The position numbers were made by a program, and so were the translations under genes. Positions 8,014 to 38,234 of a stretch of DNA of 64,000 nucleotides are shown here, piece after piece (the first letter of the stretch is position 1; every line of letters begins with the position of its first letter). This stretch comes from Deltaproteobacteria bacterium (GTDB lineage: Bacteria; Desulfobacterota; DSM-4660; Desulfatiglandales; Desulfatiglandaceae). The notes under the pieces were generated by a model, which had not been told where the DNA came from, searched no databases, and was given only the letters and a program-made list of their open reading frames with translations. The stretch spans positions 8,052 to 72,051 of the forward strand of contig DAINAR010000003.1 of NCBI GenBank assembly GCA_036733345.1, written 5' to 3'.

Positions 8014-8806
8014 GCAGATGAAAAAGATACTTGAAGTTAAGAATCTAACCATGAACTTTGGAGGGCTATGTGCCCTTGACAGAATTGATCTGGATATCTC
8101 TGAAGGAGAAATTGTTGCCCTTATAGGCCCTAATGGTGCAGGCAAGACTACTTTTTTCAACTGCATAACAGGAATTTACCCTCCAACAGAAGGCAAGATG
8201 TTTATATTCCCTCCGGGGAAAGCTCGAAAAAGCATAAAGGGTTTAAAGCCTAATCAGGTAACGGAAAAAGGATTGGCGCGCACTTTCCAGAATATTCGTC
8301 TTTTTCCCAACATGACAGTGCTTGAAAATGTAATGATTGGACGTCATTGCCGTATGTCTTCAGGTATTGCAGGTGCTGTTTTTAGAAATAAGGCAACAGT
8401 CAGAGAAGAAAATGCGATTGTAGAGGAAAGTTATATTATTCTTCAAAAGATAGGGCTTTCAGAATATGTAAATGAATTCGCGAAAAATCTGCCATATGGC
8501 GCTCAAAGGCGCCTGGAAATTGCCAGGGCTATGGCTACTGAACCTTTTCTCCTTTTATTAGATGAACCGGCTGCGGGAATGAATCTCCGTGAGACAAAGG
8601 AACTTGATGAATTGATTGTAAAGATAAGAAATACTGAAGGTATATCAATACTGCTTATTGAGCATGATATGAAGCTGGTAATGAGCCTGTCCGACCGTAT
8701 TTTTGTTGTAGATTACGGGAAGAAGATTGCGCAGGGAACACCGGAAGAAATTCAAAAGAATCCTGTTGTGATAAAGGCATATCTCGGAGAGGATTTCGAT
8801 GCTTGA
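8003..8806 (+). CDS. livG: Branched-chain amino acid ABC transporter ATP-binding protein
   Basis: Walker A GPNGAGKTT, signature and Walker B LLLLDEPAAGMN. Overlaps the livM stop; the start could be the ATG at 8018. Confidence 0.9.
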   Translation: MKNRQMKKILEVKNLTMNFGGLCALDRIDLDISEGEIVALIGPNGAGKTTFFNCITGIYPPTEGKMFIFPPGKARKSIKGLKPNQVTEKGLARTFQNIRLFPNMTVLENVMIGRHCRMSSGIAGAVFRNKATVREENAIVEESYIILQKIGLSEYVNEFAKNLPYGAQRRLEIARAMATEPFLLLLDEPAAGMNLRETKELDELIVKIRNTEGISILLIEHDMKLVMSLSDRIFVVDYGKKIAQGTPEEIQKNPVVIKAYLGEDFDA

Positions 8807-9506
8807 GGTCAGGAATATAAAGACCTTTTACGGAGGCATACAGGCCTTAAAAGATATCAGTATACAGATATCTGAAGGAGAGATTATTACTCTTATCGGA
8901 GCTAACGGTGCAGGAAAGACAACAACCCTGATGTCAATTTCCGGCATAGTGCCACCCAAATCCGGAGAGATTTATTTTCTGGGTGAACCTATTCATAATA
9001 TGAATCCTGATAAAATAGTGTCTCGTGGAATTTCTCAGGTTCCTGAAGGTCGCCGTATATTTCCATATCTTACTGTCCTGGAAAATCTGGATATGGGAGC
9101 GTTCCTGAGAAATGATACTGAGGATATCAAAAGGGATATAGAATACATTTTTGAGCTTTTTCCTCTTTTAGCTGAAAGACGTCGCCAACCTGGCGGAACT
9201 TTAAGCGGAGGAGAGCAACAAATGCTGGCTATATCAAGGGCAATTATGGCCAGGCCTCGGCTGCTTTTACTTGATGAGCCATCATTGGGCCTTGCTCCGA
9301 TAATTATAAGGCAGATTTTCGATATAATACAAAAGATAAATAAAGAAAATAAAACCACCATTTTCCTTGTAGAGCAGAATGCCAACCTGGCGCTTAAGGT
9401 TGCGAACAGGGGGTACGTTATGGAAAACGGACGTATAACTCTTATGGATTCAGCTCAAAATCTCCTTTCAAATGAAAAGGTAAAGAAGGCCTATCTTGGC
9501 CTGTAG
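8799..9506 (+). CDS. livF: Branched-chain amino acid ABC transporter ATP-binding protein
   Basis: GANGAGKTT, LSGGEQQMLAI and LLLLDEPSLGLAP motifs. 8-nt overlap with livG. Confidence 0.9.
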   Translation: MLEVRNIKTFYGGIQALKDISIQISEGEIITLIGANGAGKTTTLMSISGIVPPKSGEIYFLGEPIHNMNPDKIVSRGISQVPEGRRIFPYLTVLENLDMGAFLRNDTEDIKRDIEYIFELFPLLAERRRQPGGTLSGGEQQMLAISRAIMARPRLLLLDEPSLGLAPIIIRQIFDIIQKINKENKTTIFLVEQNANLALKVANRGYVMENGRITLMDSAQNLLSNEKVKKAYLGL

Positions 9507-9522
9507 CCTTTTCACAAATTAT

Positions 9523-9551
9523 AACAGGCAGGCAGTGTGCTGTTCTTTTTT
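9523..9551 (+). terminator. Probable intrinsic terminator after livF
   Basis: AACAG...CTGTT stem followed by CTTTTTT. The stem is short. Confidence 0.45.
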
Positions 9552-9671
9552 ATGTTAATTATACAAGACAAATGACGATCAACCACTGAGCTGAAACTGT
9601 ATTTTGTCCTGTTAATATCTTGACATGTAATAACTGTTGCCGAAAACAAAATAAATGGAGGTAGCTTTTCT

Positions 9672-10094
9672 GTGCAGATAAAAAAGATACTTGTTCCTGT
9701 CGACGGATCAGAGCATTCCATGCGTTCAGCCATGTATGCTATGGAATTGGCCGGGATGGTAGATGCTGATGTTGTGATACTATACTGCCATAGACCATTT
9801 CCTGTTGTCCTTGGTGAACCTTATTATCAGAAGGCAGTAGATGATCTTATGGAAGAATCAAACGCCCTGCTTGATCCGTACAGGGATCTTTTTAAGAAAG
9901 GAGGGGTTAAATTTGGAGATAGAATACTTTCAGGATCACCTCATGAAATTATTCCGGAAGTCGCCGAAATTGAGAAGTTTGACATAATTGTTATGGGCTC
10001 ACGCGGCTGCACAGATCTTGAAGGTTTGTTTTTGGGAAGCGTAACGCACAGGGTTTTGCATACAGCTAAATGTCCTGTGTTGATAGTTAAGTAA
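9672..10094 (+). CDS. Universal stress protein (UspA family)
   Basis: ILVPVDGSEHS ... IIVMGSRG...GSVTHRVLHTAKCPVLIV, the classic USP motifs. GTG start with GGAGG SD. Confidence 0.85.
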   Translation: MQIKKILVPVDGSEHSMRSAMYAMELAGMVDADVVILYCHRPFPVVLGEPYYQKAVDDLMEESNALLDPYRDLFKKGGVKFGDRILSGSPHEIIPEVAEIEKFDIIVMGSRGCTDLEGLFLGSVTHRVLHTAKCPVLIVK

Positions 10095-10166
10095 TATCAA
10101 TTCATAAATAATTATTTTTTCAGAATCTGCCTTAGCCTCAAGTTCATTAGTTATCTTTCAAATAAT

Positions 10167-11108
10167 TTATTCTACACTTTGCTTACTTATTTGCGGACGA
10201 GGCAGCAACCCGGCTCGTTCGATTATCTCGGCAGTATTTGCCTTTGGCCCTGGAGCCATAATGTGAATTCCTTTAACCTCTTTCATATCCCCGAGTTCTT
10301 TTATCTGATCTATACAGATTTTGATGCCTTCTTCACGCTGTTTATCTTTGGGTACTCCATTTAGACGGTCAATGACAAAGTCCGGGATGATTATTCCGGG
10401 GAGATTGTTGCTCATATACTGCGCCATTCCAATGGATTTTATCGCAATAATGCCTGGAATAATATAGCACTTTTCAGTTATGCCATGGTCTTTTGCCATG
10501 TTCAGCCAGATTCCAAACCGCTTGGTATCAAATACAGGTTGAGTTTGAATAAATTCAGCGCCTGCCCTGACTTTCTTTTTAAGTTTTATGATGTGTAATT
10601 CTTGTGATTCGACAAATGGATTCGCAACGCAACCTATAAAAAATCCTGGGATTCCTTCTACTTTATTACCATTAATCAACCGTCCTTCATCCCTTATACG
10701 TTTTACCGCTTCAATCCACTGGATAGAATCAAGATCAAATACTTTTTTTGCCTGTGGATGATCTCCTTTTACAGGGTGGTCTCCTGTCATGCAAACAACG
10801 TTTTTAATATCCAATGCAGAAGCCCCCAGGAGGTCGCTTTGAAGGGCAATCCGATTCCGGTCGCGTGTTGTCATTTGCATTACTGGCTCAATTCCTGAAT
10901 CAAGCAGGATCTTGCAAATAGCCCAACTTGACATTCTTACGTTTGCGCTGGGGTTGTCGTTTACATTTACAGCGTCCACATTCCCCAACAGTTCGGAGGC
11001 AATAAGACTTATTGAATCCAGATTCGCTCCGAGAGGAGGTGTGACCTCACATGTTACAGCAAAATGTCCTCTGCCGAGTATAGTTTGGAGATTTGTCTGG
11101 CTTTTCAT
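10167..11108 (-). CDS. metF: Methylenetetrahydrofolate reductase, acetogen/sulfate-reducer type
   Basis: MTHFR-family sequence (TRDRNRIALQSDLLGA..., VCMTGDHP). 4-nt overlap with upstream metV. Confidence 0.85.
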   Translation of the reverse strand: MKSQTNLQTILGRGHFAVTCEVTPPLGANLDSISLIASELLGNVDAVNVNDNPSANVRMSSWAICKILLDSGIEPVMQMTTRDRNRIALQSDLLGASALDIKNVVCMTGDHPVKGDHPQAKKVFDLDSIQWIEAVKRIRDEGRLINGNKVEGIPGFFIGCVANPFVESQELHIIKLKKKVRAGAEFIQTQPVFDTKRFGIWLNMAKDHGITEKCYIIPGIIAIKSIGMAQYMSNNLPGIIIPDFVIDRLNGVPKDKQREEGIKICIDQIKELGDMKEVKGIHIMAPGPKANTAEIIERAGLLPRPQISKQSVE

Positions 11109-27645: not shown

Positions 27646-29223
27646 CTACTTGTAATGTTTTGGATTTACGTCATGTTTTTTGACCTTGTATCCAAAAATA
27701 CGTTCAGTCGTCTTAAGGGCTATAGCAGCCTGTCTTATATTACCCCTGCTGCTTTTCAGGGCGTCAATGAGCAAATCTTTTTCGAATCTATCAACGGCAT
27801 CGACAAATGACTGGGTCTGTTGAGTGCCTGTATCCTGAGCCGTTTGAAGTGTGGGAGGTAAATGGTAGCTGTGAATTACCTGATCATCACAAAGCAAGAC
27901 TGCCCTTTCCATACAGTTTTCAAGTTCCCTGACATTACCCGGCCAGTGGTACTGAGTTAATGCGTCAATTGCGGGCGTTGAAATCCTTTTAATATCTTTG
28001 TTGTACTCGCGTGAATATTTTTCCAGGAAATAGTCTGCCAGCAAAAGAAGGTCAGCCTCTCTTTCCCTTAAAGGAGGAAGGTATATTGGGTATACGTTCA
28101 GACGATAAAAAAGGTCCTCTCGAAAAAGTCCGGAATCAACCGCCTTAGCCAGGTCCTGATTTGAAGCTGCAATAAGGCGGATATTGACTTGCATGGTTGT
28201 GGTCCCGCCTAATCTCTCAAGTTCTCTTTCCTGAAGTATCCTGAGCAGCTTTCCCTGGCTTTCAAGGGCAAGCGAACCGATTTCATCTAAAAAGATAGAA
28301 CCTCCATTGGCCAGTTCAAACTTGCCTGCCTTTTGACGGCTGGCACCTGTAAATGCCCCCTTTTCATAACCGAACAGTTCCGCTTCGACCAGATTAGCCG
28401 GTAATGCTGCACAGTTAATTTTTATCAATGGCTTGTCTGAGCGCAGGCTGTTAAAGTGAATAGCATTGGCAACGAGTTCCTTGCCTGTTCCGCTTTCTCC
28501 AAGAAGGAGGACATTGGCATTGCTTTTGGCCACCTGTGTTATCAGGTAGAACACCTCCTGCATCTTTCGGCTGTTGCCAATAATATTAGTGAAGCTGTAT
28601 TTTTTATCGAGTGTTTTTTTTAGCCGCATATTTTCCTGCCTTAGTTGTTCCGTTTCTCTGTTCAACTTCTCCAGCAGGGATACCTTCTGAGCAATCAGGC
28701 CGCTGATTACTGTTAACAGTCTAACATCTTCATCCAAAGGGCTGTCACTGTCAAAGACACGGTCAACACTGAGAGTACCGATTACTCTTCGGCCTTCCTT
28801 TATGGGCACACATATAAATGAAATTTTTGATTTATCTATCTGGCTCCTGGCCCCTGTCTTATCAAGAAAAAGCGGTTCAGCATCAATATGTGGAACAACC
28901 ATTGATCTTCCCGATTCAATAACTCGTCCTGTAATGCCTTCACCTAATTTGTATCTGCCCCTTGTTTTCTCTTTTTGTGAAATACCATGAGCGAGCTCAA
29001 TATGGGTCTCGGATGCATCACGGTTTAATAGGGTAATGGATCCACGTTTCATGCCGAGAAGTTCTGATAACATGTCGAGGATTTTATAAAGGGATTTTCT
29101 CATGTCAAGGGTGGCATGAATAGCCTTTGTTATTTCGTAAAGGCATGCAATTCTATCCGGTCCGGATTTATTACTTTTTCCAGTCGTAATTTTTCTTTGA
29201 TTTTTCATATCCTTTTTACCCAT
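27646..29223 (-). CDS. Sigma-54-dependent transcriptional activator, GAF-AAA+-HTH (NifA-like architecture)
   Basis: N-terminal GAF-like region, then GESGTGKE Walker A, GAFTGA loop (EKGAFTGA), ELFGYEKG, and a C-terminal Fis-type HTH ([17 protein letters not shown]). Exact start uncertain. Confidence 0.88.
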
Positions 29224-29483
29224 TAGGAGTTATAGTGCCTCTTATATGTCTGTATACCTATTTTGCCCATGGTTAAAGGCTGAATAGCTTAGCTTATGAA
29301 CAACGGAGATATTGTTGTTTTCAGCATAGAAGATATGCAAAATGCTAAAAGCCTTTCTGATATTTACATTTTTGTCATTAATATATATACATTACTACAA
29401 TATTGTAAATTAAATTTTTACTCCGCCAGGTATAAAAAAAGCAACCTATTGATAAAAGGCTATAATAAGGCTTTTTGATAATC

Positions 29484-29499
29484 TGGCATCATAATTGCT
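29484..29499 (+). promoter_or_regulatory. Sigma-54 promoter (TGGCAT-N5-TTGCT) of glnA
   Basis: CTGGCATCATAATTGCTT has GG-N10-GC spacing and matches the TGGCAC-N5-TTGCW consensus at all but one position. Lies 57 nt upstream of the ATG at 29556. Confidence 0.8.
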
Positions 29500-29555
29500 T
29501 TTGTAGAGATTATCGAGTTCATTTAATAAAAATATTTTCTTTTGGAGGAAGACAA

Positions 29556-30884
29556 ATGATATGTCGAACTATTGAGGATGTTAAAAAAGTCGTTAATGAT
29601 AAAAAAATCAGCTTTATACAGTTCTGGTTTACTGATGTACTGGGCTATCTGAAAAGTTTCGCTGTCACGCCATCGGAACTGGAGGAGGGTTTGACAGAAG
29701 GAATGGGTTTTGATGGTTCATCCATTGAAGGATTTGCGAGGATCCATGAAAGCGATATGATCGCAAAGCCTGATCCAACCACATTTGAGATGGTACCCTG
29801 GAGAAATAATGAGCGCCCTGTAGGAAGAATGTTCTGCGATATTCTTAATCCGGACGGCAGTCCTTATGAGGGAGACCCGCGCTATGTGTTCAAGCGGCTT
29901 CTGAAGCAGGTAGCTGAAAAAGGATACACTTTTTATTTGGGGCCGGAGCTTGAATATTTCTATTTCAAAGATTCAAAATGCACTGAGGTCCTTGATATGG
30001 CAGGCTATTTTGATTCACGCCCCATAGATATGGGCGGAAACCTGCGGAGAGAGACAATATTCGCATTGCAGGACATGGGTATTCAGGTCGAGTACAGCCA
30101 TCACGAAGTTGCCCCAAGTCAGCATGAGATTGACCTTCGCTATGATGAGGGACTCAGGATGGCTGATAAAACAATGACATATCGTGTGGTTGTAAAGGAA
30201 ATAGCAAGGCAGAACGGTGTGTATGCCACCTTTATGCCTAAGCCTATTTTCGGCCAGAACGGCAGTGGAATGCATGTCCATCAGTCATTATTCAAGGGAG
30301 ATAGAAACGCATTCTATGATCCTGGTGATAAATATCAGCTGTCAGAAATAGCCAGGTATTACATAGCCGGCTTGATGCGCCATGCTCCGGAGATTACAGC
30401 TGTGACAAATCAGTGGGTGAACTCCTACAAACGTTTGGTACCTGGCTATGAGGCCCCTGTATATGTGTCATGGGCAAGGAGAAACCGCTCTGCCATGATC
30501 AGAGTGCCTATGTATAAGCCAGGAAAAGAAAAGGCGACCAGGGTTGAATTTCGTTCTCCTGATCCTTCCTGCAATCCGTATCTTGCATTTGCTGTAATGC
30601 TGGGTGCAGGACTTGAGGGTATAGAAAAAAAATACGATTTGACAGACCCTATTGAAGAAGACATCTATGAAATGAAGCCTTCAGAGAGAAAGGCACATGG
30701 AATTAAGGATTTGCCGGGCAATCTCTATGCCGCAATCCTTGAAACAGAGAAAAGTGAACTGGTCAAAAAGGTCTTAGGAGATCATGTCTTCAATAAATTC
30801 ATTGAAAACAAAAAGATCGAGTGGGATACGTACAGGGTTCATGTAAGCCGGTTCGAACTTGATAAATATTTACCCGTTTTATAG
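29556..30884 (+). CDS. glnA: Glutamine synthetase, type I
   Basis: ISFIQFWFTDVLG, GFDGSSIEGF, KPIFGQNGSGMHVHQS and NSYKRLVPGYEAP motifs. Start moved to ATG 29556 (GGAGG SD) because the track start at 29475 lies upstream of the sigma-54 promoter. Confidence 0.93.
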   Translation: MICRTIEDVKKVVNDKKISFIQFWFTDVLGYLKSFAVTPSELEEGLTEGMGFDGSSIEGFARIHESDMIAKPDPTTFEMVPWRNNERPVGRMFCDILNPDGSPYEGDPRYVFKRLLKQVAEKGYTFYLGPELEYFYFKDSKCTEVLDMAGYFDSRPIDMGGNLRRETIFALQDMGIQVEYSHHEVAPSQHEIDLRYDEGLRMADKTMTYRVVVKEIARQNGVYATFMPKPIFGQNGSGMHVHQSLFKGDRNAFYDPGDKYQLSEIARYYIAGLMRHAPEITAVTNQWVNSYKRLVPGYEAPVYVSWARRNRSAMIRVPMYKPGKEKATRVEFRSPDPSCNPYLAFAVMLGAGLEGIEKKYDLTDPIEEDIYEMKPSERKAHGIKDLPGNLYAAILETEKSELVKKVLGDHVFNKFIENKKIEWDTYRVHVSRFELDKYLPVL

Positions 30885-30906
30885 GCACAGGTATTTTAGT
30901 ATTTGA

Positions 30907-30936
30907 ATAGCTGACCGGTATATGCCGGTCAGCTAT
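30907..30936 (+). terminator. 12-bp stem-loop after glnA (weak terminator / processing site)
   Basis: ATAGCTGACCGG-tatatg-CCGGTCAGCTAT, followed by only TT. Confidence 0.4.
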
Positions 30937-31010
30937 TTAGCAGGCTGATTAATAACATCAATTATAACTTGAACATTTAACAACTCAACAACAGGGAGAA
31001 AAAGAGAAAA

Positions 31011-32243
31011 ATGAAAGACGAGGCAACAACCATTGTAGGCCAGAACCTCTTTGGCTTCCAGGCGGCCTTGCAGGAGGCCGGCTCAAGTCTGGAGGAATAT
31101 CTTGATAAATATTATCTCAACAACTGGATGGGGGAAACACTGTATGCAGCCATGGCAATAAGGACAACCTTTGTCAATGCCATGCAGCAGTTTCTGGCGG
31201 ATGAAGGGTTGTTCAACCTTGAACGGGTACAGATGAGCCCTATGACCGACCCATTGGCCCATGATGTGGAGCATGTACCGAATATTCATTACAAAGGCCA
31301 GCTTTATGTTACGACTCACAGCATGATTTATTCAAAGTTCCTTGCATGTTTTAATCCCAGGATAAAGGGAGTTTTTGTTGATTCACCCAACATAAGGCTC
31401 GAAATCGAAAGCCCTGACAGGATTCAGAGGGGAAAGTACCTTGTGGATTTCAGCCAGATGGATGTGGAAGTAAGAAGAAACAGAGGCATAGATCTGGAAA
31501 CCTATTTGAGTAAACCGGACAGAGTAAAGGCCATTCTGAGAGAGGATATGGAAAAGGGGCTGGATCTGTTTGAGCGTTTAATCATCAATTCCATGACAAG
31601 GATTTTGGAGAAGAATAAGGACGAATTAAAGGCCCTTGGTGTAACCATTGAAGTGCCTGAACAACCTTTCCCTCGTTTTTTGTGTGACAGGGCAAAGGAG
31701 AAGTATGGCCGGGATTATGAAGTAAAGGCAGGAGAAGAGACAGACAAACAGTTTTTCTGGATTACCGGGATATTGAGGGAGAATTATGATCTTATATACC
31801 CATATCTGAAGTCGGATGGAAAGGTCTCTCCGTCTGAGATAACCTCTGATATGATATACAACTATGACCTTTGTGCAAAGAGCATTATCAGGGATACAGG
31901 GAAGCAGACCTCTACACTGGAGATTTTGTCTGGCGCTGTCAGGGAATGGCTTCATGAGGCAATAGTGGAGAGGCTGCTTGACAATGGGATAATTCCTTGC
32001 AGCCCTGTTTTCAGTGATGGAAATATCACAAACATTGATGAACTCGGAGGCTACGGTCCTTTTCTGATGATGACCGCAAAAAGAGATGCTCAGGCAAGGT
32101 CTCTGTTTCCTGAAACTTATGGTGGAGGAGTAGGTGTTGAGAGAACTCTTTATGCTATCCTCCGCGGACCGGTACTTGATAAAATCGATAATATCACCTG
32201 TTTCGGTAAAAATCCCGATAGCCATCAGCTATACCTGTTTTAA
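31011..32243 (+). CDS. Class II aminoacyl-tRNA-synthetase catalytic-core paralogue (possible AsnA-type amide synthetase); no room for an anticodon-binding domain
   Basis: Motif-1-like FNLERVQMSPMTDP, motif-2-like SPNIRLE...RGKYLVDFSQMDVEV, motif-3-like GGGVGVERTLYAIL. SD GGGAG. Product assignment is tentative. Confidence 0.55.
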   Translation: MKDEATTIVGQNLFGFQAALQEAGSSLEEYLDKYYLNNWMGETLYAAMAIRTTFVNAMQQFLADEGLFNLERVQMSPMTDPLAHDVEHVPNIHYKGQLYVTTHSMIYSKFLACFNPRIKGVFVDSPNIRLEIESPDRIQRGKYLVDFSQMDVEVRRNRGIDLETYLSKPDRVKAILREDMEKGLDLFERLIINSMTRILEKNKDELKALGVTIEVPEQPFPRFLCDRAKEKYGRDYEVKAGEETDKQFFWITGILRENYDLIYPYLKSDGKVSPSEITSDMIYNYDLCAKSIIRDTGKQTSTLEILSGAVREWLHEAIVERLLDNGIIPCSPVFSDGNITNIDELGGYGPFLMMTAKRDAQARSLFPETYGGGVGVERTLYAILRGPVLDKIDNITCFGKNPDSHQLYLF

Positions 32244-32284
32244 ACGAGAAATATAGAAAAAATAGACCAGAAAGGTTAAGACCT

Positions 32285-35200
32285 GTGAAGGGCCTATATG
32301 ACAAAAAATTTGAGCATGATGCTTGCGGGGTCGGATTTGTAGTCAATATTGAAGGCACCAAAAGCCATGCCATTGTGGAAAAGGGGATTGAAGTCCTTAA
32401 GAACCTGGAACACCGCGGTGCTATAGGCGCTGATATGAATACAGGTGACGGTGCCGGTATCCTGTTTCAGATCCCTGATGCTTTTTTCAGGCGCGAAGGC
32501 GAGATGCTGGGCTATCATTTGCCGGAGACTGGATGCTACGGAATCGGTATGATTTTTATGCACCGTTCATCGAATCTGGCTGAAAAATGCCGTGCCATCA
32601 TAGAAAAGACTATAAATGAGGAGGGCCTCGGGTTTATTGGCTGGCGAAATGTCCCTGTTGACGAAGGAGCGATTGCCGGTCAGGCAAAAGACAGGCAGCC
32701 GATCATTCTTCAATGCCTTATTGACGGAAAGGGCCTGAAATGGGCAGGTCTTGAACGCAGGCTTTTTATTGTCCGCAGAGAGATTGAAAGGCTGGTATCA
32801 AGTACAACAGGAAATGAGATCCCTTTCTATATCCCAAGCATGTCCTGCAGAACTATTGTCTATAAGGGGCTCTTCACTGCTACACAGTTGCCGCTTTTTT
32901 ACAGGGACCTGAATGACCCTGATGTTACAAGTTCACTTGCCGTTGTCCACCAAAGATACAGCACAAATACTTTTCCTTCGTGGGAACTTGCCCAGCCTTT
33001 CAGGTATCTTGCTCATAACGGGGAAATAAACACCCTGCGGGGCAATCTAAACCTGATAAGATCGCGTGAGTCATGCCTTAAATCGGATCTGTTTGGAGAT
33101 GAAATAGGAAAAGTCCTCCCTGTTATAAATGAAACAGGAAGCGATTCTTCATGTCTGGATAATGTCCTGGAATTACTTGTAAACGCAGGGCGGTCTCTCC
33201 CCCACTCGATGCTGATGCTTGTACCCGAGGCATGGGGAGATAAATACCCGATGGGGCATGATCAGCGCGGGTTCTTTGAGTACCATGCAGGGCTTATGGA
33301 GCCCTGGGACGGACCGGCGGCGATAGCCTTTTCCAATGGAGATCAGGTAGGCGCAATGCTTGACAGAAACGGCTTGAGGCCTGCCCGTTATACAATGACA
33401 AAATCAGGCTTTATGGTTTTTGCCTCTGAAGCTGGTGTGCTGGATATTCCTCCTTCCGATGTGGTCGAAAAGGGTGCTTTGCGGCCGGGTCAGTTGATTC
33501 TGGTTGATCTTGACAAGAAACGCGTGATTAAAAACTCTGAAATAAAGACAATATGTGCCAGACAACAGCCTTATCGCAGATGGGTCGAGGAAAATAGAAT
33601 TACACTGAGGGGATTTTACGGTGATGTGGCCTCTATTAAACCTGATCTTGATAGAATTTTATTCATGCAGAAGATGTTCGGATATACCAGGGAAGACCTT
33701 GAGATGATCCTTGGCCCGATGGCCTTAAACGGATATGAACCGGTCGGTTCAATGGGCGCTGATACGCCTCTGGCTGTTTTGTCTGAAAGAAATCAACTGT
33801 TATATTCCTACTTCAAGCAGCTTTTCGCACAGGTTACCAATCCTCCTATTGACCCGGTGCGTGAGGAGCTTGTCATGTCATTAATGACCTTTATCGGCAA
33901 TCCAGGTAATATACTTTCCGAGGTACCGCGGAACAGCCGCCTGATAAAACTGAGGCACCCGATACTTGCAAACGAAGACCTGGTTCGCCTAAGGGACATG
34001 AATGTGCATGAATTCCGATCCGCGACCATGGCCCTCGGTTTTCCTGCCGGAGGTTCCGGCAGATATCTGGCCTCAGCTATTGATCAGCTTTGCAGGACGA
34101 GCGAAGAAAACCTAAGAAAGGGTTGCAGGATACTTATTCTGAGCGACCGCGGTCTTGCTGGCAGCCTTACGCCTATTCCTGCCCTGCTTGCCGTATCTGC
34201 AATCAACCAGCACCTGCTTAAAAAAGGCATGAGAACAAAGGCCGGACTTATAATTGAAACCGGTGAGGCCAGAGAAGTTATGCATATGGCAATGCTTCTT
34301 GGTTTCGGTGCTACTGCGGTAAATCCTTACCTTGCATTCGAAACTATAGCAGAGATGGTTTTAAAAGATGAACTCAAACAAGGCATAGGTATTGCTGAAG
34401 CCCTTGAGAATTATATCAGAGCCCTTTGCAAGGGGCTTTTAAAAATCATGTCCAAAATGGGGATATCTACCCTACGGAGCTACAGGAGTGCGCAGGTTTT
34501 TGAGGCGGTGGGGCTTGGCAGGGATTTGGTTGACAAGTACTTCCCGGGGACATCCTCACGCATAGGAGGGATAGGCCTTAATGAAATCGCAGCGGAGGCG
34601 AATGCAAGGCATGAGAGTGCACACAATAAAATTCACGGCACACATGAAATCCTGCCGAGCGGGGGTCATTACAGATATCGGAGGGATGGAGAAAGGCATC
34701 TGTGGTCTCCGGGATCAATCACCCTGCTTCAGAAGGCGACAAGGAATAATGATTACAGCCTGTATAGTGAGTATGCCGGGCTGATCAACAACCAGGCTAA
34801 AGCCCTTTATACCCTTCGCGGCATGTTCAGGTTCAGGAATACAAAGCCTGTCCCTGTTGACGAAGTTGAACCAGCATCGGAGATAGTAAAGAGATTTGTA
34901 ACAGGCGCCATGTCATTTGGCTCCATAAGCAGGGAGGCTCATGAGACTATTGCTATCGCCATGAACCGCATAGGAGCTAAGAGCAACAGCGGCGAGGGCG
35001 GGGAGGATTCAGCCCGTTACAAACCCCTGCCGAACGGCGACAGACGGTCAAGTGCAGTTAAACAGGTTGCGAGCGGCAGATTCGGTGTTACCACAGAATA
35101 CCTGGTTAATGCCAGGGAACTTCAGATAAAGATCGCACAGGGAGCCAAGCCAGGAGAAGGAGGTCAACTGCCCGGACACAAAGTAAACGAGGAAATTGCG

Positions 35201-36799
35201 AAGGTGCGTCATTCTACACCTGGAGTGACACTTATTTCGCCTCCCCCTCACCATGATATTTACTCAATTGAAGACCTGTCTGAGCTTATCTTTGACCTGA
35301 AAAATGTGAATCCGGAAGCTCGTATTTCGGTCAAGCTTGTATCAGAAGTCGGGGTTGGTACGATTGCCGCAGGTGTATCAAAGGCGCATGCCGACATGGT
35401 TCTGATAAGCGGATATGACGGCGGTACGGGCGCATCGCCTCTTTCATCCATCAGACATGCAGGAATGCCCTGGGAACTGGGACTTGCAGACACACATCAG
35501 ACACTTGTATTAAATAATCTTCGAAGCCGGATCAGGGTCCAGGTTGACGGTCAGATGAAGACAGGCAGGGATGTAATTATTGCAGCGCTGCTGGGGGCGG
35601 AAGAATATGGTTTTGCCACCGCTGTGTTAATCGTCCTTGGTTGTGTAATGCTAAGAAAGTGCAACAGCAATGCATGTCCTGTGGGTATTGCTACTCAGGA
35701 TCCTGATCTTAGAAAATATTTCAAAGGGAAACCGGAATACGTAGTCAATTATTTCAACATGATCGCTGAGGAAGTACGTGAACTTATGGCATTGCTGGGA
35801 TTCAGGAGAATGGATGATCTCATCGGCAGGTCTGATCTGCTTGAAATGAACAGTGCCCTGGATTTCTGGAAGGCAAAGGGGCTTGATTTCTCAGGTATAT
35901 TTTACCGACCGGAGGTTAAAGGTGACATGCCCTGCAGATGTGTTGAGATGCAGAGACACGATATTGAAAAAGTTCTGGACAGAGAACTTATTTCACTCTC
36001 ATGGGAATCTCTCGAAACAAAGAAAAAGACTGCTATTCAGCTCCCTGTACACAACACCGACAGGGCTGTAGGGGCAATGATATCAGGCGAGGTTGCTAAA
36101 CGGTTTGGAAATGAGGGCCTGCCGGATGACACGATTACCTGCAAATTTGCTGGTGCTGCGGGTCAGAGTTTTGGGGCTTTTCTGGCAAAGGGTTTGACTT
36201 TCATACTTGAAGGGGAAGCAAATGATTATCTGGGTAAGGGACTGTCAGGCGGAAAGATAGTTGTTAAACCATATCCAGGTTCAGATTATAATCCATCAGA
36301 GAACATAATTGCAGGCAACATAATCCTCTACGGTGCAACTGCCGGCCAGGTGTATATACATGGAAAGGCCGGAGAGAGGTTTGGAGTCAGAAACAGCGGT
36401 GTATATGCCGTGGTGGAGGGTGTAGGGGATCATGGCTGTGAATATATGACAGGCGGAAGGGTCGTTGTTTTAGGGGAAACCGGTATAAATTTTGCCGCCG
36501 GGATGAGCGGGGGGATTGCTTACGTCTATGATCCCGAGCGGCTCTTTGACAACCGCTGCAATCTGGACATGGTGGACCTGGAACTGGTAGCGGATGAAAA
36601 TGATATCCAGGAATTAAAGGAGATGATCAGCTGGCACCTTATATATACATACAGCGCAAAGGCACAGTCAATCCTGGACAACTGGGAAGCATGCCTCCCG
36701 TTTTTTGTTAAGGTCTTTCCCATGGAGTACCGGAGAGTACTCGGAAAGATGAGCAGGGAAGACGTTGCCATTGAGCGACAGGAGATACAGCATGGATGA
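32285..36799 (+). CDS. gltB: Glutamate synthase large subunit
   Basis: Ntn Cys (HDACGVGFV), FMN domain (QGAKPGEGGQLPGHKV, DGGTGASP), C-terminal GXGXG domain. 1504 aa, GTG start. Confidence 0.95.
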   Translation: MKGLYDKKFEHDACGVGFVVNIEGTKSHAIVEKGIEVLKNLEHRGAIGADMNTGDGAGILFQIPDAFFRREGEMLGYHLPETGCYGIGMIFMHRSSNLAEKCRAIIEKTINEEGLGFIGWRNVPVDEGAIAGQAKDRQPIILQCLIDGKGLKWAGLERRLFIVRREIERLVSSTTGNEIPFYIPSMSCRTIVYKGLFTATQLPLFYRDLNDPDVTSSLAVVHQRYSTNTFPSWELAQPFRYLAHNGEINTLRGNLNLIRSRESCLKSDLFGDEIGKVLPVINETGSDSSCLDNVLELLVNAGRSLPHSMLMLVPEAWGDKYPMGHDQRGFFEYHAGLMEPWDGPAAIAFSNGDQVGAMLDRNGLRPARYTMTKSGFMVFASEAGVLDIPPSDVVEKGALRPGQLILVDLDKKRVIKNSEIKTICARQQPYRRWVEENRITLRGFYGDVASIKPDLDRILFMQKMFGYTREDLEMILGPMALNGYEPVGSMGADTPLAVLSERNQLLYSYFKQLFAQVTNPPIDPVREELVMSLMTFIGNPGNILSEVPRNSRLIKLRHPILANEDLVRLRDMNVHEFRSATMALGFPAGGSGRYLASAIDQLCRTSEENLRKGCRILILSDRGLAGSLTPIPALLAVSAINQHLLKKGMRTKAGLIIETGEAREVMHMAMLLGFGATAVNPYLAFETIAEMVLKDELKQGIGIAEALENYIRALCKGLLKIMSKMGISTLRSYRSAQVFEAVGLGRDLVDKYFPGTSSRIGGIGLNEIAAEANARHESAHNKIHGTHEILPSGGHYRYRRDGERHLWSPGSITLLQKATRNNDYSLYSEYAGLINNQAKALYTLRGMFRFRNTKPVPVDEVEPASEIVKRFVTGAMSFGSISREAHETIAIAMNRIGAKSNSGEGGEDSARYKPLPNGDRRSSAVKQVASGRFGVTTEYLVNARELQIKIAQGAKPGEGGQLPGHKVNEEIAKVRHSTPGVTLISPPPHHDIYSIEDLSELIFDLKNVNPEARISVKLVSEVGVGTIAAGVSKAHADMVLISGYDGGTGASPLSSIRHAGMPWELGLADTHQTLVLNNLRSRIRVQVDGQMKTGRDVIIAALLGAEEYGFATAVLIVLGCVMLRKCNSNACPVGIATQDPDLRKYFKGKPEYVVNYFNMIAEEVRELMALLGFRRMDDLIGRSDLLEMNSALDFWKAKGLDFSGIFYRPEVKGDMPCRCVEMQRHDIEKVLDRELISLSWESLETKKKTAIQLPVHNTDRAVGAMISGEVAKRFGNEGLPDDTITCKFAGAAGQSFGAFLAKGLTFILEGEANDYLGKGLSGGKIVVKPYPGSDYNPSENIIAGNIILYGATAGQVYIHGKAGERFGVRNSGVYAVVEGVGDHGCEYMTGGRVVVLGETGINFAAGMSGGIAYVYDPERLFDNRCNLDMVDLELVADENDIQELKEMISWHLIYTYSAKAQSILDNWEACLPFFVKVFPMEYRRVLGKMSREDVAIERQEIQHG

Positions 36800-38234
36800 G
36801 AAGGCGTCATTTATCAGGTATCCACGGAGAGACGCTTCATATCGTCCAGTATATGAACGTCTGAGGGATTACAACGCCGTAGAGTTGTCCCTGACCTTTG
36901 AAGATACCCTTATGCAGGCTGAACGGTGCATGGAGTGCGGCACGCCTTTCTGCCATGCCTACGGGTGTCCTCTGGGAAATATTGTTCCTGAATTCAATAA
37001 TGCTGCACGAATGGCAAACTGGAAGAAGGCTCTTGATCTTTTACTGTCAACCAACAACTTTCCGGAATTTACAGGCCGTATCTGTCCTGCACCCTGTGAA
37101 GCCTCGTGCGTTGCAGGAATCAATCGAGATCCTGTGAATATAAGGCAGATCGAACTGGCAATTATTGAAAAGGGTTTTGAGAATGGCTATATACATGCGG
37201 AATTGCCTTCTATCAGATTCAAGGAGAAAGTGGCCATTGTTGGTTCGGGCCCGGCCGGGCTTGCTGCAGCCGATATGCTGAACAGATCAGGGTATGATGT
37301 GACTGTCTTTGAAAGCAGTAAGAAGCCGGGAGGCCTTCTCAGATATGGGGTGCCTGATTTCAAGCTTGAAAAGTGGGTAGTTGAACGTCGCATAGACCTG
37401 ATGAAAAAACAGGGGATTGTTTTTGAAACCGGTGTGAAAGTCGGGAAGGATATTTCATACGGTTATCTATCAGGGCATTTTGATGCAATATGCCTTGCAT
37501 GCGGGCCCGGTGAGCCTCGGGATTTGCCTGTTCAGGGACGAAGTTTAAAAGGTATCTATTTTGCAATGGACTATCTGGTTCAGCAGAACAGGAGGATTTC
37601 AGGCGAGAAAGCAGACCCGTCACAGGAAATTACTGCCTCAGGAAAGACAGTTGTAGTTATAGGCGGCGGAGATACCGGCTCAGACTGCCTTGGAACAGCC
37701 CTGCGTCAGGGTGCAGAAAAGGTATATCAGTTTGAGATCATGCCTGAACCTCCGACTGAAAGGCCTGAATCAACTCCGTGGCCAGAATGGCCTGCAATAC
37801 TGCGCGAAACTCATGCACACAAGGAGGGAGGGGAAAGACGCTGGTCTGTTATGACCAAGGAATTCATGGGTGAAAACGGAATCCTGAAAGGGCTGCGATG
37901 TGCTGAAGTGGAGTGGAAGACAACCGAAGAAGGAAGGGTTCATGTGCCTGAAGAAATACCCGGAACGGAATTTGATGTAAAAGCCGATCTTGTTATCCTT
38001 GCAATGGGTTTTGTGGGCCGGAAAAAGACCGGTATTGTTGAAAGATTTGGAATTGAACTGGACAGCAGGGGAAACATCAGGGCTGATGAGCGTAATATGA
38101 CAAAGGTAAGCGGGTTGTTTATTGCGGGAGACATGAATATGGGGCAGTCACTGGTTGTCAGTGCGATAGCGGATGGCAGAAGGGCGGCTCAGGGAATTAT
38201 GGCATATTTGGCAAAAAGGGCAGGAAAAAAGTGA
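36792..38234 (+). CDS. gltD: Glutamate synthase small subunit (NADPH)
   Basis: CMECGTPFC...CPLGN Fe-S motifs and VAIVGSGPAGLAAA. The ATG at 36792 overlaps the gltB stop (ATGGATGA); the track start is 36765. Confidence 0.92.
   Translation: MDEKASFIRYPRRDASYRPVYERLRDYNAVELSLTFEDTLMQAERCMECGTPFCHAYGCPLGNIVPEFNNAARMANWKKALDLLLSTNNFPEFTGRICPAPCEASCVAGINRDPVNIRQIELAIIEKGFENGYIHAELPSIRFKEKVAIVGSGPAGLAAADMLNRSGYDVTVFESSKKPGGLLRYGVPDFKLEKWVVERRIDLMKKQGIVFETGVKVGKDISYGYLSGHFDAICLACGPGEPRDLPVQGRSLKGIYFAMDYLVQQNRRISGEKADPSQEITASGKTVVVIGGGDTGSDCLGTALRQGAEKVYQFEIMPEPPTERPESTPWPEWPAILRETHAHKEGGERRWSVMTKEFMGENGILKGLRCAEVEWKTTEEGRVHVPEEIPGTEFDVKADLVILAMGFVGRKKTGIVERFGIELDSRGNIRADERNMTKVSGLFIAGDMNMGQSLVVSAIADGRRAAQGIMAYLAKRAGKK

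Follow-up and report, generated by a model that had tools for sequence, protein, structure and literature searches.

The 64,000-nucleotide (nt) window analyzed here (positions 8,052 to 72,051 of contig DAINAR010000003.1, assembly GCA_036733345.1, from a Deltaproteobacteria bacterium of the family Desulfatiglandaceae) contains an open reading frame (ORF), which we designate gene X, lying between a glutamine synthetase gene, glnA, and the glutamate synthase genes gltB and gltD. Gene X (31011..32243; forward strand, as are all features below unless stated otherwise) starts with ATG, is preceded by a GGGAG ribosome-binding site 12 nt 5' of the start, and encodes a 410-amino-acid (aa) class IIb aminoacyl-tRNA synthetase (aaRS)-like catalytic core without an anticodon-binding domain. 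It is a long protein of the type represented by the archaeal AsnRS-like asparagine synthetases (AS-AR).

Inspection of the primary structure of X revealed all three class II motifs. The motif 1 region (31212..31253; residues 68-81, FNLERVQMSPMTDP) holds the TDPL block common to AS-AR. Motif 2 (31383..31472; residues 125-154) is comprised of SPNIRLE (residues 125-131, with catalytic R129 and E131) and RGKYLVDFSQMDVEV (residues 140-154), in which the loop RGKYLVDF is followed by QMDVE, with Q149, D151 and E153. Motif 3 (32121..32162; residues 371-384, GGGVGVERTLYAIL) contains R378. Alignments and a conservation table identified a further segment, residues 286-312 (31866..31946), in which D286 and E304 flank a lengthened hairpin and which also carries R311. 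A preliminary description of the window, made from the sequence alone, had placed motifs 1, 2 and 3 at these positions in a 410-aa ORF, and our analysis agrees.

A word-based search of 5.8 billion proteins returned more than 1,000 homologues of X, nearly all of them 407-414 aa long. The best 120 relatives are almost all exactly 410 aa and are 74-95% identical, and 105 of the 410 columns are at least 99% identical across 202 sequences. Because of this number of homologues, their near-constant length and their strong conservation, we regard X as a real gene. Database names of the relatives are "hypothetical," "amino acid--tRNA ligase-related" or "aspartyl/asparaginyl-tRNA synthetase." The protein is acidic, with an isoelectric point (pI) of 5.07. 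Four copies seem split, truncated or interrupted by stops (G068:C1:497494-498722, G077:C1:1138392-1139228, G194:C7:207003-207632 and G050:C129:2714-3664); these may be pseudogenes or assembly errors. One genome (G013) has two intact glnA-X pairs (L127 and L128).

Family assignment of X

Pfam domain analysis, which had been suggested in the preliminary description, gave tRNA-synt_2 (PF00152; Asp/Asn/Lys class IIb) as the sole match to X, at 25 bits and thus right at the threshold; there was no AsnA (PF03590), tRNA-synt_His or OB-fold (PF01336) match at an E value of ≤10. The top NCBIfam match was NF005054, the archaeal-type "asparagine synthetase A," at 130.8 bits (curated equivalog cutoff, 309 bits). 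Divergent X members score 102-147 bits on this model, and true AS-AR representatives mostly score 313-398 bits, with one protein of ~300 aa (P0175) reaching only 262. Two archaeal-type AspRS models gave subthreshold matches to X (TIGR00458, 30.6 bits with a cutoff of 368; NF003483, 20.7 bits with a cutoff of 353). No AsnRS model in NCBIfam matched X at an E value of ≤10, and no NCBIfam match was obtained to the EpmA/GenX models TIGR00462 and NF006828. No HisRS/HisZ-type profile in either Pfam or NCBIfam matched X at the same E value.

Searching the PDB by sequence, we found that residues 42-162 of X match the Pyrococcus AS-AR structures 1NNH and 3P8T (best) and that residues 177-331 match the archaeal AspRS structures 1B8A and 3NEL. 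The latter segment is collinear with AspRS residues 237-388 (32% identity; E value, 9e-14). An AlphaFold2 model of X, built from a 40-sequence alignment, had a pLDDT of 90.5 and a pTM of 0.90. In this model residues 1-64 form three helices only, the class II core follows, and there is no OB-fold, which together with the Pfam result bears out the earlier description of X as a class II core paralogue without an anticodon-binding domain. When the model was compared with the PDB using Foldseek, five AS-AR structures ranked at the top (3rex, 3reu, 3rl6, 1nnh and 3p8t; E value, ~1e-21; TM score normalized to the target, 0.80-0.82; 25-27% identity). Archaeal AspRS and AsnRS ranked after them, with TM scores of 0.57-0.65. 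The top 50 fold matches were all AS-AR, AspRS or AsnRS, and none was HisRS. The nearest solved structures are 25-28% identical to X, and none is closer.

We searched exhaustively with phmmer through 1.84 billion representatives clustered at 50% identity and obtained only about six full-length clusters (45-56% identity), beyond which the relatives are ~300-aa proteins. Eight of the 10 representatives that were scanned are such proteins, and seven of these eight pass the NF005054 cutoff, P0175 being the one that fails. Those ~300-aa relatives that bear names are archaeal "asparagine synthetase" proteins. A phylogenetic tree was inferred with IQ-TREE (LG+C20) from X, AS-AR, the Pyrococcus AS-AR cores, Thermococcus kodakarensis AspRS, Pyrococcus horikoshii AsnRS and the host's AspRS, AsnRS, LysRS and EpmA. 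X and AS-AR form a clade (support, 100/98), outside which fall archaeal and bacterial AspRS and AsnRS, LysRS and EpmA, with EpmA and LysRS as the outgroup clade. X is monophyletic (100/100) and groups among 14 AS-AR sequences that include the characterized Pyrococcus enzymes (99/99). Its stem branch is 1.66 substitutions/site, and the branches within X are very short.

By sequence, fold and phylogeny, then, X is a class IIb core that is not HisRS-like and whose nearest kin are the archaeal AS-AR. Being nested in the AS-AR tree, X is a bacterial branch of a family of archaeal enzymes. Within the AS-AR radiation it is a separate, distinct clade that diverged sharply and then was frozen. We searched the literature and found no publication that deals with this clade. 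The preliminary description had listed archaeal AsnRS-like asparagine synthetases among the possible relatives and had raised the idea of a distinct, uncharacterized clade. Both points are upheld, the first by the NF005054, PDB, Foldseek and tree results, and the second by the score below the NF005054 cutoff, the 100/100 monophyly, the long stem and the lack of an E. coli-type AsnA match. Its suggestion of a HisRS-like motif 2 did not survive the profile and fold comparisons, and a HisRS/HisZ-like identity was rejected, having neither profile nor fold support. We also rejected an identity with E. coli-type AsnA, to which X shows no similarity; a true AsnA is encoded elsewhere in the genome.

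Active site and clade-specific inserts

At 31 positions the same residue is conserved in both X and AS-AR. These positions include the blocks TDPL, S104-M-I-x-x-K109, S125-P-x-x-R129-x-E131 and F147-x-Q149-x-D151-x-E153, as well as R256, D260, E304, S307, G308, R311, G371, G373, G375 and R378. Conservation of T79, D80, P81 and L82 is 100% in X and 81-96% in AS-AR, and R129, E131, F147 and E153 are 100% conserved in both. G371, G373, G375 and R378 are 100% conserved in the 202 X sequences. At K109, R129, E131, Q149, D151, E153, E304, R311 and R378, conservation in X is 99-100% and the residue is that of the AS-AR consensus. D286 is 99% conserved in X and is invariant across X and AS-AR in smaller alignments (A1, A2 and A3). 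K109, D151 and R311 align with the aspartate-contacting residues of E. coli AspRS (K198, D233 and R489), and D286 and E304 are homologous to the Mg/ATP ligands of AspRS. The arginines of motifs 2 and 3, the loss of which had been proposed as the sign of a noncatalytic regulatory paralogue, are 100% conserved; a noncatalytic reading is not favored.

X thus shares much with the archaeal AS-AR (also called AsnRS2; Pyrococcus abyssi and P. furiosus; 3P8T, 3P8V, 3P8Y, 3REU, 3REX, 3RL6 and 1NNH; NF005054). Both are stand-alone class IIb cores without an anticodon-binding domain, and they have the same K109/D151/R311 pocket set, E304 and arginines in motifs 2 and 3. The two differ in length (410 aa for X versus 294-318 aa for AS-AR) and in host, X occurring in bacteria (Desulfobacterota) and those AS-AR relatives that have names in archaea. 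Their identity is only 25-28%, and X, unlike AS-AR, is set in a nitrogen-assimilation operon.

Further comparison of the two groups revealed where the additional length of X lies. The additions comprise two helices at the N terminus, an insert of 21 residues that follows motif 2, ~10 more residues in the D286-E304 hairpin, which contains invariant K290 and R294, and ~20 residues at positions ~330-350. Family-wide substitutions relative to AS-AR are few. The motif 2 loop has K142-Y143 in X versus R-H in AS-AR, and X also has D146 for E and R72 for P. Together the inserts and the change in the motif 2 loop suggest that X may have an added property, such as regulation, oligomerization or a partner.

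The glnA-X-gltBD locus and its counterparts in relatives

Directly 5' of X lies glnA (29553..30884), which encodes a type I glutamine synthetase (TIGR00653, 550.3 bits; cutoff, 429), and directly 3' lie ORFs for glutamate synthase, gltB (1,504 aa) and gltD (489 aa) (32285..38234). The placement of X between glnA and gltB in the preliminary description was therefore correct. By tblastn, this glnA is the only glutamine synthetase gene in the genome, which is 94% complete. A sigma-54-type -24/-12 element, TGGCATCATAATTGCT, is present at 29484..29499; it has one mismatch to TGGCAC-N5-TTGCW and is a consensus match only. The mechanically assigned start of the glnA ORF, TTG at 29475, lies upstream of this element, so that the ORF overlaps it. 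The true start is probably the ATG at 29553, which gives a protein of 443 aa beginning MICRT. We consider the element a probable promoter for glnA-X-gltBD. A divergent gene on the reverse strand (27646-29223) encodes a NifA-like sigma-54 activator that scores just under the TIGR01817 cutoff (503.5 versus 528.85 bits). No nif genes were seen near it, and it may act as a NifA-like regulator of glnA-X-gltBD.

In the 126-nt spacer between glnA and X lies a perfect hairpin of 17 bp, followed by a weak U tail (30903..30940). Its predicted RNA fold has an energy of -32.3 kcal/mol (z = -4.15), and none of 200 shuffled sequences was as stable. The hairpin probably is a partial terminator or an mRNA stabilizer that would keep glnA expression above that of X and gltBD. 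Neither a sigma-54 promoter nor a convincing sigma-70 promoter was seen in the spacer, and no riboswitch or leader (e.g., the glnA RNA) rose above noise when 29200-32400 was scanned against Rfam. In other genomes the glnA-X gap is just 13 nt.

We examined the surroundings of X in 80 named loci, which come from metagenome-assembled genomes of uncultured Desulfatiglandales, "Desulfobacteraceae," Smithellaceae, Syntrophaceae or Desulfomonilia. In ~65 of the 80, glnA lies immediately upstream of X on the same strand. The gene 3' of X varies and can be gltBD, hisHF-carAB, an ANTAR regulator with a GltB-like gene, or unrelated; purF or glmS is often found 5' of glnA or X. The order glnA-X-gltB-gltD recurs in L015 (Pfam GATase_2/Glu_syn_central/Glu_synthase/GXGXG) and in many other loci. 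At L015/L016 (1-8032), a gene for a 722-aa AspRS-GatC fusion is followed by a first glutamine synthetase gene, a gene for the GlnE adenylyltransferase, a second glutamine synthetase gene and then X; in this order X goes with the second glnA and not with the one immediately before glnE.

X members at 45-63% identity are not adjacent to glnA, and the linkage of X to glnA/gltB is lineage specific. In three distant loci a true asnS lies directly 3' of X (L104, 63% identity; L124, 61%, with an NF003037 score of 689 bits; and L111, 45%). In L111 this asnS (9250-10637) is broken into three ORFs on a long contig, for which assembly frameshifts are a more likely explanation than a real pseudogene. In another locus (L112) X lies between genes for an aminotransferase, an Asp/Glu racemase and an asparaginase, and in two more (L110 and L115) it lies within a thrA...thrB-thrC and aromatic amino acid biosynthesis cluster. 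The surroundings of two divergent members (P0127 and P0256) gave no functional clue. Candidate asnB genes upstream of X were rejected in three loci. In L106 and L109 the Pfam amidotransferase and phosphoribosyltransferase domains of the product identify it as PurF, and in L078 Pfam shows amidotransferase domains only. A neighbor of this kind in L119, L122, L123, L125 and L128 also is PurF (TIGR01134).

Proposed function of X and its alternatives

We propose, with a probability of roughly 0.6, that X is an AMP-forming aspartate-ammonia ligase that acts independently of tRNA within a nitrogen-assimilation regulon. In favor of this are the fold, the position in the tree, a pocket unchanged from AS-AR, the presence of asnS, asparaginase or Asp-family genes beside distant members, and the glnA gene directly 5' of X in most loci. 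The preliminary description had suggested ammonia-dependent asparagine synthesis from the position of X in a glutamine/glutamate operon. That reaction is still the best guess and is strengthened by the distant X-asnS operons, but the glnA/gltB linkage itself proved to be lineage specific. Colocation of asnA with asnS is found in lactobacilli and parallels the X-asnS operons. The bacterial AsnA (E. coli type; PF03590, TIGR00669) is likewise a class II-like stand-alone core and catalyzes the reaction proposed for X, but there is no detectable sequence relationship between the two; a blastp comparison of X with the host's own AsnA gave noise.

According to this proposal, X would descend from the archaeal AS-AR lineage and would bind L-aspartate and ATP-Mg. 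It would form an aspartyl-adenylate, by analogy with AS-AR and AsnA the beta-aspartyl form, and attack by ammonia would release L-asparagine, AMP and PPi (EC 6.3.1.1) with no involvement of tRNA. The gene would be cotranscribed with the sole glutamine synthetase gene and gltBD from a promoter of the sigma-54 type, served by a NifA/NtrC-like activator, and the strong hairpin after glnA probably would cut read-through into X. X would then constitute the asparagine branch of the ammonia-assimilation regulon. The substrate, the product, the carboxylate that is activated and the regulation are all inferred.

We recorded the presence or absence of X, AsnA, strict AsnB and any TIGR01536 AsnB across the class. 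In a sample of 201 genomes from the class, 71 carry X, and these belong to three families of a single order; in a phylum-wide sample of 401 genomes, 16 carry it. Of the 71 X genomes, 63 have AsnA or an AsnB-type gene, and a true AsnRS is encoded in 19 of the 20 X genomes tested. The latter result fits the published rule that genomes with AsnA also have AsnRS (PMC4206432), and we count it in favor of the ligase proposal.

Several observations weigh against that proposal. The host has a true AsnA on contig C26 (TIGR00669, 317.6 bits; cutoff, 292.8) and a true AsnB (NF006949, 616 bits; cutoff, 499), so that an asparagine synthetase encoded by X would be the third in the genome. Among the 201 genomes, the presence of X shows no statistical association with AsnA (odds ratio, 1.5; P = 0.18) or with AsnB (odds ratio, 1.25; P = 0.52). 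Nor is it enriched in the 29 genomes that lack both AsnA and an AsnB-type gene (8/29 versus 63/172; P = 0.41). The idea that X fills in for a missing asparagine synthetase therefore was rejected, as the class-wide pattern is one of independence, not complementarity. Five X genomes, one of them 96% complete (G067), do have AsnRS without AsnA or any AsnB-type gene, which speaks for the proposal. GatCAB can make Asn on tRNA without AsnA or AsnB and is commonly kept by deltaproteobacterial lineages (PMC4206432); because it could serve these five genomes, they are only suggestive. One locus, L122 (G403), has purF, a true asnB (NF006949, 944 bits) and then X; it is the only one in which a true asnB adjoins X. 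On NF005054, X falls well below the equivalog level and scores only slightly above a true AsnRS (114 bits). The protein is larger than AS-AR by ~116 residues, with invariant positions inside the X-only inserts, and the motif 2 loop is altered. A long stem, invariant inserts and a changed motif 2 loop form a pattern commonly seen with functional shift. The low profile score, the status of third asparagine synthetase, the lack of complementarity, the long stem, the inserts and the changed loop are the reasons why we go no higher than 0.6.

The host also has a large Asn_synthase repertoire. Besides AsnB there are three paralogues of AsnB (643-654 aa) and an AsnB-like gene with a weaker score (C11, 352 bits), and the AsnA of the host carries an N-terminal extension of ~35 aa. 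The AsnA/AsnB-type genes of the host (G000) lie on contigs C26, C5, C51, C21 and C11 (loci L017, L009, L006, L008, L007 and L010).

The same pattern of stem, inserts and loop is compatible with an enzyme that adenylates aspartate but passes it to an acceptor other than free ammonia. That acceptor could be an amine or amino acid, in which case the product would be an N-substituted asparagine or a beta-aspartyl compound, or it could be a side chain of a protein, as EF-P is for EpmA; the inserts would form the acceptor site. Like X, EpmA (GenX/PoxA) is a class IIb core paralogue that lacks an anticodon-binding domain. It is a LysRS-like core that beta-lysylates EF-P, which shows that such cores can gain a non-tRNA acceptor. 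It groups with LysRS, however, far from X, and the host has its own EpmA on contig C88. For an acceptor of this kind speak the very tight conservation that follows the long stem, the invariant residues of the X-only inserts (including basic K290 and R294), the RH-to-KY change in the motif 2 loop, the redundancy of X with the host's AsnA and AsnB, the existence of a purF-asnB-X operon and the lack of phyletic complementarity. We nonetheless think it unlikely, given that besides glnA no conserved gene that could encode an acceptor or partner travels with X, that distant X genes beside asnS, asparaginase and Asp-family genes fit plain asparagine synthesis, and that the alignable AS-AR-conserved positions are kept, with few and mostly conservative changes (H-to-Y143 and E-to-D146). 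In a broader form, which we also consider unlikely, X would be a neofunctionalized AS-AR descendant and not a redundant asparagine synthetase, its inserts (the helices at the N terminus, the basic D286-E304 hairpin and the 330-350 loop) coupling the aspartyl-adenylate to something new. This could be a nitrogen nucleophile other than ammonia, an acceptor that is a protein or a small molecule, or glutamine synthetase itself, through allostery or physical contact.

Alternatively, X would be mainly a HisZ-like regulatory or sensor subunit that binds Asp, Asn or ATP and modulates glutamine synthetase or the nitrogen regulon by direct contact, with little or no catalytic turnover. The tight glnA-X adjacency, with a host glnA that encodes the only glutamine synthetase, would suit such a role, as would the constant length and the unusually high, surface-wide conservation of X. 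Class II paralogues are known to have turned into regulators, HisZ being the precedent. HisZ, the HisRS-like subunit of ATP-phosphoribosyltransferase, resembles X in being a class II paralogue without a tRNA function that is encoded in a biosynthetic operon. Yet HisZ belongs to class IIa, and it and regulators of its type no longer have their catalytic residues, whereas X is class IIb and has kept R129, E131, R378, D286 and E304 at 99-100%. Taken with the X members at 45-63% identity that lie away from glnA, this makes a purely regulatory role improbable. We find it still harder to credit X as a tRNA-charging AspRS or AsnRS whose own anticodon-binding domain is absent or supplied in trans. X does have a class IIb core with complete motifs 1 to 3 and the same catalytic fold as archaeal-type AspRS and AsnRS (1B8A/3NEL and 1X54), and some X genes adjoin asnS. 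It has neither the OB-fold nor the hinge domain of these enzymes, however, and lies outside their clade; the missing OB-fold and the acidic pI argue against nucleic acid binding. The host already encodes full-length AspRS and AsnRS. X is nested in AS-AR, the Pyrococcus members of which are named asparagine synthetase A in the PDB, and among the NCBIfam models for charging enzymes it has only the subthreshold matches to archaeal-type AspRS, with no AsnRS model matched at an E value of ≤10.

If X is an asparagine synthetase, it would represent a third structural form of ammonia-dependent asparagine synthesis in bacteria, one that would have been gained from the archaeal AS-AR lineage and then enlarged. 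Its position behind the sole glnA and a sigma-54-type promoter would tie asparagine synthesis to the ammonia-assimilation regulon. If instead one of the less probable readings is true, the X family would be a new enzyme or regulator of nitrogen metabolism and an unrecognized component of nitrogen assimilation in Desulfobacterota. X is missed by current annotation, and it bears on how the metabolism of uncultured Desulfobacterota, sulfate reducing and syntrophic, is reconstructed and on predictions of asparagine auxotrophy or of tRNA-dependent asparagine synthesis. It also is a further case of aaRS cores recruited into amino acid metabolism. We also noted two AS-AR-clade proteins, P0178 (417 aa) and P0232 (443 aa), that have an N-terminal extension of 125-140 aa; one of the two, a Heimdallarchaeota protein, bears the name "asparagine synthetase A." The extension might be a retained anticodon-binding domain, in which case these proteins might be intermediates between AspRS/AsnRS and AS-AR.

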